Shown: positions 2,795 through 18,580 of the stretch, one piece after another
How the letters are laid out: every line of letters begins with the position of its first letter
How positions within the stretch are numbered: position 1 is the stretch's first letter
IMG/VR virus record: IMGVR_UViG_2541047870_000003
Reading direction: 5' to 3' (one strand)
Length of the DNA stretch: 40,696 bases
Source: a virus
Lineage: Duplodnaviria > Heunggongvirae > Uroviricota > Caudoviricetes
The notes under the pieces: model-generated
Told to the model about the DNA's origin: nothing
Databases searched by the model: none
What the model saw: the letters and a program-made list of their open reading frames with translations, nothing else
Program-made: the position numbers and the translations under genes

Positions 2795-5387
2795 TTGCAT
2801 ATTCCTTAGCCCAGCGGGGCAGTGATAATGTCTTAATAGCTGGCCATTCATCGGTATTCAGGCAGTCAGACAGGGTTCGCAGATTGCGGTGATATTCCTG
2901 TTGACCTGCCAGTTTTGCTTCTTCGCCCATCATGAAAATTTCAACCGGATAACGTCCGCATTCAATAGTTGTGCTGGCAACCAGAAAAACGAAAGTTGGC
3001 TGCACTCCAAACTGTGCTTCATAACCGTCACTGTAGAATGCATCCTGAACGTGATAGCGGTAGTCGTAATAAGCGGTTTTGAATCGTTGAATATCCGCCG
3101 TAGTTTTCACGTCCATGATCCAGTGAAATTCAGGGATAATTTTGTCCGGACGGCACCGACACAAAATTCCTGTTTCAGGATCTTCCCAGTAAATTGATGA
3201 TTCAGCGTGTCCGGCGCTTTCAACAAGCCATTGCCCCAGCGGCAAAGCCATAACGCTCTGATACATGAGTTCAATTTTCCGGCCTTCTTCGGCAGTGATA
3301 ACCGTTTTTCCTGTGCTTGCGCATTCCCTCAGAAACGCTTTCTCTTCTTCTTTTCCGGAGTTTGTCCGGCGGTTAAATTCAGGTGCTACGATAAAGCGGT
3401 TACTGAATTCTTCCGGCTCAAGTACCCGGCAGTGGAAAGCGGTTCCTAAATCGAGCGTTTTTGTCTTTGTGGTGTCCACGGGGGCATTTTTACGCCACAA
3501 ATATAGTGCCGGAGTATCAGCAATGTCATCGAGCTGAGACTTACTGATACCGGGACCCGCGTGGTAATTCTCATTCGAAATTCCGTAATAAATACCTGGC
3601 TCTATGTCTTCTACGATTACGGGATCTGCGACTTCGCCAGTTTCATCACTGCAATCGCGATGCGGATCGCTGCCAGCATTCTCATTGTGCGGATGTTCAG
3701 CGCCTTCCATTTCCTCCGGATCATTTTCCTTAGCTTCAACCTGACTCTCTTCATCGAATGTTTCCTGGTATGTTGCGTCGCCCATCACCGCACCACAGTC
3801 AGGGCAGTTATCCCCGCCAGTCTGGCCGCAGGCATTGCAGGCTATTTCCGGTTCCTGTTGCACTACTGGCTCAGGTTGATTCATATCCGGGCTGGTTTTT
3901 TCCGTTTCTGGCTGGTTCTGGTACACACAATCGCGAGTCTGGATCCCCTTTACCCATTTCGGATCGTTCGGGTCGCTAATTCCGTCAACAAATTCACCAC
4001 GTGATGCAGCAAGCAATTTATCGGCATCGACAGGATTTTTTGATGGAATGTTTTTCCGGGCTTCATGGAGTTCTGCCCACAGTTCCTGATATTTCGCATC
4101 AACAGAATTTACCTGTGACTGAGCATCCAGCGGCTGCGTGTCCTGATGATGTTCAGTTGCGTCCGGTTCCATTGTTTCAGCCTCTCCCTGTTCAACTGCC
4201 GTTGTTCCAGATGGTTGCGGTTTTTCTTCATCATCCTGTTTTCCTTCTTCTGTTACTCGCTGCGGCATCGGGGCAGAGGAGCGACCGCAGGCAATATCCA
4301 CGATTTCCGGATCAGGGTTGGCATGATCGGTTTCAGTCAGTACTTTGTTCAGATATTCAGTGACGTGCGCGGGGATGACCTCGATCCCAATTGGTGCTTC
4401 TTTTACGGACGCAACCACGATGGCGCGGGAATAATCCAGCCCGCCAGGCATGGTGATGAATTTGTCGCGGAAAACAGAAAAGGGCGGTTTATTTTCAGCG
4501 ATAATTTCCTCAATGCGTTTAGCGTGTGCCGGATGAAGGTTATAGATGTCCAGATCCATTGAACGGGCCAGTACGCCAGTGGCTACGTCGCGCGCCAGTG
4601 ACGTCAGATCGTGTACGAAACCTTCGCCGCGATCGGTGAGGTTTCCGCCGCCAGCATTAGCACCGGAAGCCGTGCGAGTGATGTGTGAAACACGATTACC
4701 CTTCATCCACTCTTTTGTCAGCAGTCCTCGATCGGTGTAGTCAGCGTTCAGGTATGCTTCGAAAAAAGCAGTTATCAGTCCCAGGTTTGAATTACCAGGA
4801 TTAGGGAAAACTTTGTCAGTGTCACGAACCAGTTTGTGGAGTTCGCGAATTTCCAGCGGGTCGAGCAGGCTGGTTTTGTGGGAAACAGCCAGGGCAGTAA
4901 CAGCCGGTAGTTCTTCAGCCCGAGCAATGTGTAATGCCTGGAGTCCGTCGCGTGAAACGTGCGTTACCGGTTTTTCGCTGCCGTGTTGAGCAAGCCAACG
5001 AATGGGCAGTTCCTGGCCAGAAATTGGGAGTAGCATATTCTCCTCAATCTCAGTCATGTCTTCGCCGTTGACGTTGGTATTGCCTTGATAGTGAGCGTTG
5101 TCTGGTGCTGCTCCCGGTTTTAGTTCCCATGTCATGGAGTCTTTGCTGAGTTGATAGCGTTCACTCCAGGTAAAATCGATCTCACCTTCAGCGGGCAGGT
5201 CATTAACGACAGGAAAATTCGTGGCAACAGCTTTAAAATAGCTGCTCAGTTTTTTACCTGACTTAACGATCAGGTAGTCCAGAGTGGCACAGGTCGATTC
5301 AAAATCGTTGCTTGCCCACAGGACGACGTCAGGTTCACCGGATGATTTTTTCGCTTTCCGTAACAGGAAGAGTGGTTTTGTGCTCAT
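2787..5387 (-). CDS. recE: Exodeoxyribonuclease VIII (RecE), 866 aa
   Basis: 866-aa ORF directly upstream of recT on same strand; length and acidic linker with Cys cluster ([16 protein letters not shown]) consistent with RecE as I recall it. Confidence 0.85.
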
Positions 5388-6671: not shown

Positions 6672-7160
6672 ATGTTGGATGTATTTACTCCATTGTTGAA
6701 ACTTTTTGCTAACGAGCCACTCGAAATACTTATGTATACGATTATCATTTTTGGTCTCACTCTCTGGCTGATACCGAAAGAGTTTACTGTCGCATTCAAT
6801 GCTTATACTGAAATACCTTGGCTCTTTCAGATTATCGTTTTTGCCTTTTCTTTCGTGGTCGCCATTTCCTTCTCAAGATTGCGAGCACATATTCAAAAGC
6901 ATTATTCATTACTACCAGAGCAACGAGTATTGCTTCGTTTATCTGAGAAAGAAATCGCTGTATTTAAAGATTTCCTTAAAACAGGAAATCTTATTATCAC
7001 TTCTCCTTGCCGTAACCCGGTTATGAAAAAATTAGAACGGAAGGGCATCATTCAACATCAGAGTGATAGCGCAAACTGTTCTTATTATCTCGTCACCGAA
7101 AAATACTCCCATTTTATGAAGTTATTCTGGAACAGCAGGAGTAGACGTTTTAATCGTTAG
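6672..7160 (+). CDS. sieB: Superinfection exclusion protein SieB-like, 162 aa from MLDVFTPLLKLF; hydrophobic N-terminal segments
   Basis: In-frame internal ATG of track ORF 6549-7160; two hydrophobic stretches (IIIFGLTLWLI, IIVFAFSFVVAI) visible; recalled as Rac SieB. Confidence 0.75.
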   Translation: MLDVFTPLLKLFANEPLEILMYTIIIFGLTLWLIPKEFTVAFNAYTEIPWLFQIIVFAFSFVVAISFSRLRAHIQKHYSLLPEQRVLLRLSEKEIAVFKDFLKTGNLIITSPCRNPVMKKLERKGIIQHQSDSANCSYYLVTEKYSHFMKLFWNSRSRRFNR

Positions 7161-7312
7161 CTTACTGTGTGCTTCTCCAACCATCGGCGCGCACCAGTTT
7201 CGGTTTTAAATGTTTTGCTTTTGGTATACGTCATGGCAGTGAACGTTCCATCCTGGTTGGGGAACACGCCGCACACCAGGGATTCGTTGTTGCCGAGGTC
7301 GATTTTTTGCAT
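7157..7312 (-). CDS. ydaF: YdaF-like small protein, 51 aa (MQKIDLGNNESLVCG...)
   Basis: Hand translation of minus strand; below ORF-track cutoff; first gene of leftward early operon. Confidence 0.5.
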   Translation of the reverse strand: MQKIDLGNNESLVCGVFPNQDGTFTAMTYTKSKTFKTETGARRWLEKHTVS

Positions 7313-7322
7313 TTTGCGAATC

Positions 7323-7457
7323 TCACATCTTGTTGCTACGTATAGCGACTTCTGCCTGCCAGAGATCCCAGTCGTTGCTGCGTAAAGCCTGCACAGCCTG
7401 GTTGTAAGTGATACCGCAACAATCCATCAAATACTGAACTACTTCGTAATGCACCAT
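7323..7457 (-). CDS. ydaG: YdaG-like small protein, 44 aa (MVHYEVVQYLMDCCG...)
   Basis: Hand translation of minus strand; below ORF-track cutoff. Confidence 0.5.
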   Translation of the reverse strand: MVHYEVVQYLMDCCGITYNQAVQALRSNDWDLWQAEVAIRSNKM

Positions 7458-7629
7458 CTTATCTCTCCCCTTAACGCCGGGTGGCGGAACTAACTGCTGC
7501 ACTGCAAAATTTGAATCCCGCCGTCATGTTCATACGCCTCGGGCTGGCTACTTAACCCCTTACCACTGCCTGGTAACTCGAAGTATTGCCCGGCGTTCTG
7601 TGGGGCGGGGTGGGTGGTATGCTGGAACT

Positions 7630-7675
7630 ATAGGTAATGCCTAATTGATTGTCAATAGGCTATGCCTAATGTTTT
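7630..7675. promoter_or_regulatory. Left operator-like cluster (OL analogue): repeated TGCCTAAT motifs and ATTGTCAATAGGCT, inverted relative to the copy right of racR
   Basis: Seen directly: atgcctaat occurs twice and attgtcaataggct is the reverse complement of agcctattgacaat at 8298-8311. Confidence 0.4.
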
Positions 7676-7765
7676 GAGCGTAACCTAATAGGTGATGGCG
7701 ACAGCAGAAAGTGATGGGGGGGTTAAATAACGGAATCCAGGAGTTTTCCGTCAGACCATATAAGT

Positions 7766-8242
7766 TTAAGTTCCAGTTTTTGTGATGTTCTGGCTTTTCC
7801 GTTCAGATTCTAGAGCTTTCAGATACTTACCCACTTTCATTTCCATCGCTGCTATGTAGGCGCGAACATCGTGGTCAACCCAATCTGGTTCTGTAGCATT
7901 TCCAGATAACAGGAAAGCTACAATCGCTCTTATTTCATCAGAGGCTGCTTGATAAAGGTTGTTTATATCTAAAAGTTCACTTTTTGTATCTGAATTGGTG
8001 GGGGTTGGTATGGGGTATTCGTTAAGCCCCCAATGCTCTGGACCAACAACATCAGAAAAGAAACGCCATAATTCTGGAAGTTTATCTTTACTTATAGAGC
8101 CTTTCTTAATCCAGTCATAAATTGATGGTGGTTGGACTTTGAAGTGGCGTGCGACCTCCGCCTTTGATTTGACGGATCCCGATGCGATTTTTTTGTTAAT
8201 GGCCTGCTCTATCGCTCGGCCTAAGTCTTTACCACTAAGCAT
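7766..8242 (-). CDS. racR: Prophage repressor RacR-like, 158 aa
   Basis: ORF divergent from the ydaS/ydaT pair; translation recalled as RacR; operator-like repeats on both sides. Confidence 0.8.
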   Translation of the reverse strand: MLSGKDLGRAIEQAINKKIASGSVKSKAEVARHFKVQPPSIYDWIKKGSISKDKLPELWRFFSDVVGPEHWGLNEYPIPTPTNSDTKSELLDINNLYQAASDEIRAIVAFLLSGNATEPDWVDHDVRAYIAAMEMKVGKYLKALESERKSQNITKTGT

Positions 8243-8261
8243 TGCTTAATATTCTCCTATG

Positions 8262-8335
8262 CGCATTACATTAGGCAATCCCTATCCTTACCGCATTAGG
8301 CACAGCCTATTGACAATTGCGTTAGGCGTCGCCTA
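8262..8335. promoter_or_regulatory. Divergent promoter/operator region (OR analogue) between racR and ydaS: CATTAGGCA x2 plus 7-N-7 palindrome TTAGGCG-t-CGCCTAA
   Basis: Seen directly in the 123-bp racR-ydaS intergenic region; perfect 7-bp inverted arms at 8322-8336. Confidence 0.5.
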
Positions 8336-8365
8336 ATATTTCTGTGTGTTTTTGGAGTTCATTCG

Positions 8366-8662
8366 ATGAAAAAAGAGAACTATTCATTCAAGCAAGCTTG
8401 TGCTGTTGTCGGTGGGCAATCAGCAATGGCTAGGCTTTTAGGTGTATCACCTCCAAGCGTAAATCAATGGATCAAAGGGGTACGTCAATTGCCTGCCGAG
8501 AGATGTCCAGCAATTGAACGTGCAACAAGAGGTGAGGTTCTGTGCGAAGAACTTCGTCCTGATATTGACTGGTCATATTTACGACGTTCGGCATGTTGTT
8601 CGCAGAATATGTCAGTGAAGCAACTAAATGACAGTAACAAATCCTCATTTGATCATACCTGA
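8366..8662 (+). CDS. ydaS: Cro-like HTH regulator YdaS, 98 aa
   Basis: Divergent from repressor; HTH-like segment GQSAMARLLGVSPPSVNQWIKG; recalled as Rac YdaS. Confidence 0.8.
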   Translation: MKKENYSFKQACAVVGGQSAMARLLGVSPPSVNQWIKGVRQLPAERCPAIERATRGEVLCEELRPDIDWSYLRRSACCSQNMSVKQLNDSNKSSFDHT

Positions 8663-8684
8663 AACATCAAGAGGCAAATGATTC

Positions 8685-9107
8685 ATGAAAATCAAGCATG
8701 AGCACATCGAATCAGTGTTGTTTGCCCTAGCAGCCGAAAAAGGGCAGGCATGGGTAGCCAATGCAATTACTGAAGAATATCTGCGCCAGGGGGGCGGCGA
8801 ATTGCCCCTGGTTCCAGGCAAGGACTGGAACAATCAGCAGAATATCTATCACCGTTGGTTGAAAGGTGAAACGAAAACGCAAAGAGAAAAAATTCAGAAG
8901 CTGATCCCAGCAATTCTGGCAATCCTTCCGCGCGAGCTGCGTCACCGACTCTGCATCTTCGATACCCTGGAACGCCGTGCATTACTGGCGGCGCAGGAAG
9001 CGTTAAGTACGGCAATTGATGCGCATGATGATGCAGTCCAAGCCGTTTACCGGAAAGCGCATTTCAGCGGCGGCGGTTCTTCCGACGATTCTGTCATTGT
9101 TCATTAA
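8685..9107 (+). CDS. ydaT: YdaT-like protein (reported toxic when derepressed), 140 aa
   Basis: Second gene of rightward early operon; recalled as Rac YdaT. Confidence 0.75.
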   Translation: MKIKHEHIESVLFALAAEKGQAWVANAITEEYLRQGGGELPLVPGKDWNNQQNIYHRWLKGETKTQREKIQKLIPAILAILPRELRHRLCIFDTLERRALLAAQEALSTAIDAHDDAVQAVYRKAHFSGGGSSDDSVIVH

Positions 9108-18364: not shown

Positions 18365-18580
18365 ATGAAATCCATGGACAAAATTTCAACGGGCATTGCC
18401 TATGGCACCTCCGCAGGCAGTGCTGGCTACTGGTTTTTACAGTGGCTTGATCAGGTCAGTCCGTCACAGTGGGCTGCGATTGGTGTGCTGGGGAGTCTGG
18501 TTCTGGGCTTCCTGACTTATCTGACAAATCTGTACTTCAAAATCAGAGAAGACAAGCGTAAGGCTGCACGGGGAGAGTAA
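18365..18580 (+). CDS. S: Phage-21-type pinholin S21 with dual-start motif (Met1-Lys-Ser-Met4)
   Basis: [27 protein letters not shown]... matches S21 as recalled; two TM segments; Lys between the two Met codons. Confidence 0.85.

Follow-up and report, generated by a model that had tools for sequence, protein, structure and literature searches.

The window analysed here, the whole 40,696-nucleotide stretch of IMG/VR record IMGVR_UViG_2541047870_000003, was identified as the Rac prophage of E. coli. Its racR locus is very probably a lambdoid immunity switch made of two outward-directed promoter/operator cassettes, the left one being a leftward promoter with its operators (PL/OL) silenced by RacR. 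Rac is a defective virus (prophage) of E. coli, from which kilR and the recombineering genes recET come; in E. coli K-12 few transcription factors are essential, and RacR is one of them. Over positions 7400–8700 identity was 100% to strain KKa014 and 99.7% to K-12 MG1655; matching records annotate racR, ydaS and ydaT there. The right cassette is already known: it is the published ydaS-ydaT promoter (PydaST) with its footprinted RacR operators. The left cassette is probably a PL/OL, predicted here from its architecture and undescribed as far as could be searched. A repressor gene bracketed by left and right operators in the manner of lambda had been proposed from an earlier reading of the letters alone (the sequence-only reading), and this layout is supported by architecture, by conservation, by covariation with the repressor and by RNA sequencing (RNA-seq). 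RacR binding on the right side and leftward derepression on RacR depletion are published experimental results. Every sequence-level feature of a lambdoid immunity region that was examined was found at this locus.

Known and predicted promoters and operators on either side of racR

A 23-bp block had been noted to the left of racR and, reverse-complemented, to its right. Both copies were read directly, TTGTCAATAGGCTATGCCTAATG at 7649–7671 (plus strand) and TTGTCAATAGGCTGTGCCTAATG at 8294–8316 (minus strand), and the block pattern matched nowhere else in the window (two matches; 0 expected from 100 dinucleotide shuffles). The pair extends to 24 nt (7648–7671 and 8294–8317, inverted, 96% complementary, 23/24 positions). 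The additional TGCCTAA half-sites of the sequence-only reading are present at 7638–7644 and, as TTAGGCA, at 8273–8279. The palindrome TTAGGCG-T-CGCCTAA is also where it was described (8323–8337); noted as a 7-N-7 element, it is in function a 6-3-6 operator.

RacR sites were searched with the motif TAGGC-n3-GCCTA, taken from the published footprint (PMC9638921). Five sites with at most one mismatch were found in the 40.7-kb window against 0.72 expected, a number reached by 0 of 100 shuffles. As the earlier reading would have it, all five (7631–7643, 7656–7668, 8272–8284, 8297–8309 and 8323–8335) fall in two clusters flanking racR. Sites with two mismatches were not enriched window-wide (8 against 11 expected), and the distant ones at 18390 and 35405 were rejected as chance level.

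A promoter scan of 7300–8500 returned exactly two sites, TTGACA-17-TATAGT directed leftward (7655..7627) and TTGACA-18-TAATAT directed rightward (8310..8339). At both, one operator abuts the upstream side of the −35 hexamer and another occupies the spacer and extends into the −10. The two are homologous, mirror-image cassettes, each directed away from racR, with the form TTAGGCnnnGCCTA - TTGACA - 4 to 6 nt - TTAGGCnnnGCCTA overlapping the −10. Within this scheme the 23-bp block comprises a single operator and the TTGACA −35 hexamer of the outward-facing promoter. It was not taken as a recent duplication, its identity coming mostly from functional consensus (operator core and −35 together make 16 defined positions). 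The features of the locus are listed below from left to right; operators are given without strand.

7458–7620, minus strand: predicted PL leader, 163 nt, reaching the ydaG ATG; common to heteroimmune prophages
~7620, minus strand: predicted PL +1, an A on this strand
7627–7632, minus strand: predicted PL −10, TATAGT, from the promoter scan; 5/6 match
7631–7643: OL1, TAGGTAATGCCTA, 1 mismatch; fills the PL spacer and overlaps the first two −10 bases
7650–7655, minus strand: predicted PL −35, TTGACA, perfect consensus; promoter match 11/12, 17-bp spacer
7656–7668: OL2, TAGGCTATGCCTA, 0 mismatches; directly upstream of the predicted PL −35 and within the 23-bp block
7675–7687: third left site, doubtful; TAGGTTACGCTCA as read on the minus strand, 3 mismatches
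7766–8242, minus strand: racR, repressor gene, 158 aa; from its open reading frame and the K-12 annotation
8236–8248: TAAGCATTGCTTA, 2 mismatches; the operator published at the racR start codon, its n3 spacer overlapping the ATG (PMC9638921)
8272–8284: right operator, TAGGCAATCCCTA, 1 mismatch; in the racR promoter region (PMC9638921)
8297–8309: right operator, TAGGCACAGCCTA, 0 mismatches; directly upstream of the PydaST −35 and within the 23-bp block
8310–8315, plus strand: −35 of PydaST (resembling the lambda rightward promoter, PR), TTGACA; from the promoter scan, mapped experimentally in PMC9638921
8323–8335: right operator, TAGGCGTCGCCTA, 0 mismatches; in the PydaST spacer, overlapping the −10
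8334–8339, plus strand: PydaST −10, TAATAT, 18-bp spacer; from the promoter scan

The predicted left cassette spans 7627–7668 on the minus strand. OL2 (no mismatch) and OL1 (one mismatch) lie in the same mismatch range as the footprinted right sites. As in a lambdoid region, the operator sequence of the repressor-cro interval thus recurs beyond racR, over a predicted outward promoter co-directional with racR. The third left operator (7675–7687) was rejected as doubtful: it has three mismatches, its distance to OL2 is 19 bp and not 25 bp, and it is unconserved outside E. coli.

That the palindromes work at the RNA level instead, as hairpins or intrinsic terminators ending racR or ydaS-antisense transcripts, has next to no probability. 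A terminator scan does flag 7656–7668 and 8321–8337 on the plus strand, but its two hits compare with 1.3 expected from shuffles, with stems of 5–7 bp. Downstream of the left hairpin, read along the minus strand (the sense strand of racR), comes TTGACAATCAA, which holds no T run. The n3 loop and the flanks vary and the half-sites in the DNA stay fixed, with no compensatory changes.

The right cluster is described in the literature. GCCTAA/TTAGGC repeats were noted there, and RacR binding was found by electrophoretic mobility shift assay (EMSA) and by chromatin immunoprecipitation (ChIP) with quantitative PCR (Krishnamurthi 2017, PMC5700373). A single ydaS start site was mapped by primer extension, with −35 TTGACA and −10 TAATAT (Wisniewska 2022, PMC9638921); mutation of the −10 abolishes PydaST activity, DNase I footprinting of RacR gives (T/A)TAGGC-n3-GCCTA(T/A), and the PydaST operator at 8323–8335 is protected first, at the lowest RacR concentration (PMC9638921). 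Later papers describe four operators and a RacR octamer (PMC11014345, PMC11879457). Motif, −35, −10 and the operator at the racR ATG are the same in the published PydaST as in the right cluster here. Repression of ydaS and ydaT by RacR from this cluster, which the sequence-only reading had considered likely, is thus established by experiment (PMC5700373, PMC9638921). The published operator papers treat the intergenic region only, and the octamer is ascribed in them to four adjacent repeats.

The four right operators of E. coli Rac lie at about 0, −36, −61 and −87 from the racR ATG. More distant members of the family (upstream regions of loci L006–L030) have three, at 0, −35 and −60. The extra operator in E. 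coli Rac, 8297–8309, is the right copy most like OL2, a likeness suggesting that an operator on this side may have been duplicated or converted locally. Of the 24 more distant homologous loci, 20 also have a site at the start-codon position. In the PR cassettes of Betaproteobacteria (L012, L014, L017, L022, L029, L030) a cro-like ATG follows the −10 by about 6–8 nt, a spacing that implies leaderless cro mRNAs in these relatives.

Conservation of the cassettes and exchange of the immunity module

The 7400–8700 query matched about 3800 E. coli records, most of them over the first ~220 bases only. Three heteroimmune Rac-like prophages among the matches (L154, L155 and L156) keep recE to ydaG and the leader up to ~7619–7620 and diverge from ~7621, which puts the mosaic boundary no more than a base or two from the predicted PL start. 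The repressor is a different one in each, and the repeats at the OL position are particular to that prophage and recur between its repressor and cro genes. In L156, TACCCATGGGTA-type sites stand at 2733 and 2758 (25 bp apart, left) and at 3269 and 3293 (24 bp apart, right). L155 is of the paaR2 type studied by Jurenas et al. (PMC8630535). Operators and repressor were thus exchanged together as an immunity module in these three Rac-like prophages, as happens among lambdoid phages. Divergence at ~7621 together with separate OL and right-operator (OR) repeats places the left cluster within the immunity module, and the shared leader begins at the predicted PL start.

A direct experimental precedent for the Rac left cassette is PL933P of prophage CP-933P, which carries OL1–3 and is repressed by PaaR2 and YdaS (Jurenas 2021, PMC8630535). 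CP-933P has the same leftward operon and leader as Rac, and this type (L155) departs from Rac exactly at the predicted PL start. Its PL lies downstream of the repressor operon, with −35 and −10 hexamers identical to those of its PR and operators resembling OR, and repression there has been shown. Unlike Rac, it has PaaR2 as repressor, GTTTAGTAA-type operators and paaA2-parE2 toxin-antitoxin cargo between repressor and PL.

It is very unlikely that the left sites of Rac are bound mainly by the Cro-like YdaS, or by some other factor, rather than by RacR. YdaS reportedly competes with RacR for the operators between racR and ydaS (PMC11014345) and represses its own gene (PMC9638921), and the dual repression of PL933P (PMC8630535) speaks for a YdaS contribution too. 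The left sites nevertheless agree with the RacR consensus no less closely than the footprinted right sites (0 and 1 mismatch), and lambdoid operators are shared by both proteins, so that YdaS binding would add to RacR control of PL and not replace it.

Conservation was followed further afield with genome loci oriented on the repressor gene (29 loci; two near-identical E. coli-type loci were set aside and 27 analysed). The N-terminal domain of RacR (aa 1–73) is highly conserved among homologues, and the C-terminal part is variable. Sites recur at 0, −35 and −60 from the repressor ATG. Downstream of the repressor gene, and facing the same way, 15 of the 27 loci have a doublet: two sites spaced 24–26 bp, with TTGACA in the gap. 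Mixta, Morganella, Proteus, Erwinia, Achromobacter, Burkholderia, Sphaerotilus, Comamonas, Rhodoferax and Herbaspirillum are among them. Its distance from the repressor stop codon is 68–141 bp in enterobacteria and 0.7–2.5 kb where cargo genes intervene. The isolated temperate Klebsiella phage KpF5 has its doublet 1.4 kb downstream, after a gene with an HSDR_N domain. The 27 loci together hold 92 sites and 32 doublets; shuffled loci averaged 0.18 sites each, and 5400 shuffles produced a single doublet. The sequence-only reading would have been refuted by repeats that related prophages do not keep; the cassette is in fact kept downstream of RacR-type repressors in distant bacteria and in phages.

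Alignment of 20 PL-type and 14 PR-type cassettes gave the consensus ATTAGGCAAnGCCTATTGACAnAnnATTAGGCnnnGCCTAATAT. Half-sites and the TTG of the −35 are invariant in these 34 cassettes, ACA is at least 90% conserved, and flanks and n3 spacers are free to vary. Two cassettes ~645 bp apart on opposite strands were present in 43 of 80 loci retrieved from IMG/VR. In 20 of the 37 single-cassette loci there, a gene for a repressor with the RacR N-terminal domain starts 572–2174 bp upstream in the same orientation; another two have a RacR-type repressor gene 55 bp off on the opposite strand. Among E. coli variants of the RacR type, 1 of 30 functional positions varies on the left, compared with 32 of the 115 remaining intergenic ones (Fisher p = 0.002), and 1 of 45 on the right against 22 of 78 others (p = 1e-4). 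The lone left change hits a base already off consensus; the lone right change restores the consensus.

These data bear on the idea that the left block is a non-functional relic, left by duplication or gene conversion of a right operator, with leftward silencing due solely to Rho/NusG acting on transcripts that run through racR, at 'trac', a terminator within that gene. The 23/24 identity to the right copy would suit a recent copy, and Rho-dependent silencing of kil is published (PMC4150792). A relic would hardly be found at the same position in Gamma- and Betaproteobacteria between unrelated flanks, however; substitutions avoid half-sites and promoter hexamers, the cassette covaries with the type of repressor, and the leftward genes rise while transcription of racR is blocked. 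We consider a relic highly improbable.

Several relatives carry cargo genes between the repressor and the left cassette, encoding an ankyrin-repeat protein, an LprI-like protein or, in phage KpF5, an HSDR_N-domain protein. The cargo gaps span 3490–5281 in L017, 1974–3932 in L030, 4649–5803 in L033, 4202–4687 in L014 and 3630–4495 in L029. The slot equals that of rexAB in lambda and of paaA2-parE2 in CP-933P.

Probable silencing of the leftward operon by RacR

The genes to either side of racR are arranged as in a lambdoid region. racR (minus strand) and ydaS (plus strand) are divergent, with 123 bp and three to four palindromic sites between them. To the left of racR the K-12 annotation gives ydaG, ydaF, kilR, ydaE, racC, recE, recT, ralR, rcbA, xisR and intR, all leftward; sieB is on the opposite strand. 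The left operon thus carries early-left functions (kil, recombination, excision and integration). The flanking genes in the window are as follows.

7157–7312, minus strand: ydaF, next after ydaG in the leftward operon
7323–7457, minus strand: ydaG, 44 aa, first gene of the leftward operon
8366–8662, plus strand: ydaS, Cro-like helix-turn-helix gene; Pfam YdaS_toxin E 2.6e-31, P22_Cro E 3.4e-9
8685–9107, plus strand: ydaT, cII-like; from its open reading frame and annotation

Published transcriptomes bear on the leftward operon. When RacR was lowered by C protein, racR was the sole Rac gene to fall; ydaC, kilR and ralA rose more than 70-fold and ydaF, ydaG, ydaE and racC about 40-fold (PMC6765115). 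Cascade directed to +3 or +58 of racR lowered racR mRNA 11–20-fold and derepressed ydaG, kilR, ydaE, racC, recE, recT, ralR, xisR and intR (bioRxiv 10.64898/2026.09.06.749655). Since the leftward genes rise while racR is blocked, we infer that read-through from the racR promoters cannot be their source and that a RacR-repressed promoter is needed downstream of the roadblock. The left cassette fits as this promoter. Zygotic induction of Rac recombination functions, cited in PMC5917428, also fits a RacR-controlled PL. Control of the leftward kil/recET operon by RacR, the second regulatory proposal of the sequence-only reading, is thus backed by the architecture of the left cassette, its conservation and the published derepression, with RacR binding at that cassette predicted from its operators.

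The following mechanism is proposed. RacR dimers on 6-3-6 palindromes, one upstream of the −35 and one over the spacer and −10, would exclude RNA polymerase. At the right cassette RacR represses ydaS (cro-like) and ydaT (cII-like) and autoregulates racR, effects shown in the literature, and two further right operators extend its reach to the racR promoters and start codon. The left cassette would be a near-consensus sigma-70 PL silenced by RacR at OL1 and OL2. Its transcript would run from ~7620 through the 163-nt leader into ydaG-ydaF-kilR-ydaE-racC-recE-recT-ralR-rcbA-xisR-intR. Three elements of this scheme are inferred: occupancy of the left sites by RacR, the position of the PL start and any cooperation between OL and OR.

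Several points weigh against a PL under RacR control. Part of the derepression seen by RNA-seq could have come about indirectly, by way of YdaS, YdaT or excision of the prophage. Silencing of kilR has been ascribed to Rho/NusG, acting to terminate transcripts that arrive from upstream of racR (PMC4150792). One half-site of OL1 is mismatched (TAGGT), and the convincing left sites number two, not three. Downstream doublets were absent from the 3-kb flank of 11 of the 27 loci, where the doublet may lie farther off or have been lost; a twelfth locus, L021, showed one lone site. In the open-access literature no EMSA, footprint, ChIP or start-site mapping of the left cluster was found, and published in-vitro work with RacR is limited to the racR-ydaS intergenic fragment.

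The indirect route was considered in its strongest form, in which the left sites are looping anchors for the right promoters only and the leftward genes are switched on via YdaS, YdaT, excision or read-through. RacR has been reported as an octamer in solution (PMC11014345), and the RNA-seq samples were taken hours after depletion, with YdaS and YdaT expressed and excision begun. Against this, a perfect −35 and a 5/6 −10 at 17-bp spacing lie between and under the two sites, and the promoter geometry is kept in 20 distant PL-type cassettes, which an anchor would not need. The breakpoint of the heteroimmune mosaics, moreover, coincides with the predicted +1. An anchor role of this kind is unlikely.

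Rho termination is compatible with a RacR-controlled PL and is best seen as an additional layer of control, RacR then not being the sole one. The Rho-dependent terminator 'trac' was placed inside racR, after a '+1 to +210 untranslated region' (PMC4150792). This untranslated region fits poorly with the leaderless racR transcript mapped later (PMC9638921), and PMC4150792 mentions no promoter downstream of racR. The origin of the Rho-silenced kilR transcripts may have to be reconsidered.

No left operator or PL for RacR was found described in the open-access literature; older sbcA papers and EcoCyc/RegulonDB lay outside this search. The searchable text of the RacR-operator papers mentions no sites downstream of racR, and ydaG appears at most once in it, only as a derepressed gene. 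A promoter or sites downstream of racR are likewise unmentioned in the Jobling letter, the 2019 transcriptome (PMC6765115), the CRISPR interference preprint, the Rho 'trac' paper (PMC4150792) and the OxyS/kilR paper. Recent models of Rac use the racR-ydaS intergenic region only, and put kilR silencing down to Rho termination through racR. A RacR-controlled PL, if present, would give a simple and direct mechanism for the 40–70-fold derepression from ydaG to intR on RacR depletion. It would also explain zygotic induction of recE and the excision of Rac (xisR, intR) after loss of RacR. The left half would complete an ordinary lambdoid switch whose right half was already known, and would introduce no new principle.

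RacR, lambda and the predicted PL leader

RacR gave nothing above threshold against Pfam, with HTH_17 as the only sub-threshold match and no S24 match, and no sequence relatives were found for it in the PDB. A place among the autocleavable S24 repressors of the CI/LexA type was rejected, the protein having no C-terminal Peptidase_S24 domain. Homologues with the RacR N-terminal domain that do carry S24 were found in L012 (E 1.2e-13) and L030 (E 1.3e-24). Fusions of the RacR DNA-binding domain (aa 1–73) to Peptidase_S24 occur in Betaproteobacteria at 3001–4098 in L012, 3001–4089 in L014 and 1268–1951 in L030, and further proteins of this kind are P0103 (Pectobacterium) and P0105. The operator cassettes in these three loci are the same as in Rac. 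By its domain composition RacR looks like a domain-swapped relative of the autocleavable repressors, not a member of their family. It works like CI though it stands outside the CI/LexA family.

Rac resembles lambda (summarised in PMC8630535) in having its repressor gene between two outward early promoters, a predicted PL following that gene in the same direction. Operators in both are two-fold symmetric and closely spaced from centre to centre (24–26 bp in the Rac family, 23–24 bp in lambda). Genes for kil, recombination, xis and int lie to the left and cro and cII analogues to the right, the repressor is reported as an octamer, and the slot between repressor and OL takes cargo in Rac relatives as it takes rexAB in lambda. 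Unlike lambda, Rac has two left operators, not three, and four right operators; no N-like antiterminator was identified in it, and YdaS reportedly does not repress racR (PMC9638921). RacR differs from CI in having no S24/RecA-cleavable domain and no detectable sequence relation to it.

The octamer was observed in solution by size-exclusion chromatography (PMC11014345). With a RacR-controlled PL it could be re-read as a possible bridge between OL and OR. More tentatively, and with somewhat less than even confidence, a RacR octamer, instead of being four dimers side by side in the intergenic region, may join the two left operators to the PydaST-proximal right ones in a lambda-like repression loop of ~650 bp, through a C-terminal oligomerisation domain unrelated to that of CI, and the 45-bp cassette with the 73-aa domain may form an immunity unit portable between Enterobacterales and Betaproteobacteria, with interchangeable C-termini (RacR-type or S24).

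An Rfam search of 7100–8500 at E up to 1 returned no match, and predicted folding of the PL leader was marginally better than that of shuffles (z = −1.7). The leader (7458–7620) is highly conserved in the heteroimmune Rac-like prophages, with ~3800 E. coli records matching, and begins with a stretch rich in C (AUACCACCCACCCCGCCCCACAG). The early-left transcript may have a rut- or nut-like element in this leader. YdaG, the product of the first gene after the leader, has a match to the UBA-like UBA_4 domain family that passes the Pfam cutoff (E 3e-5).

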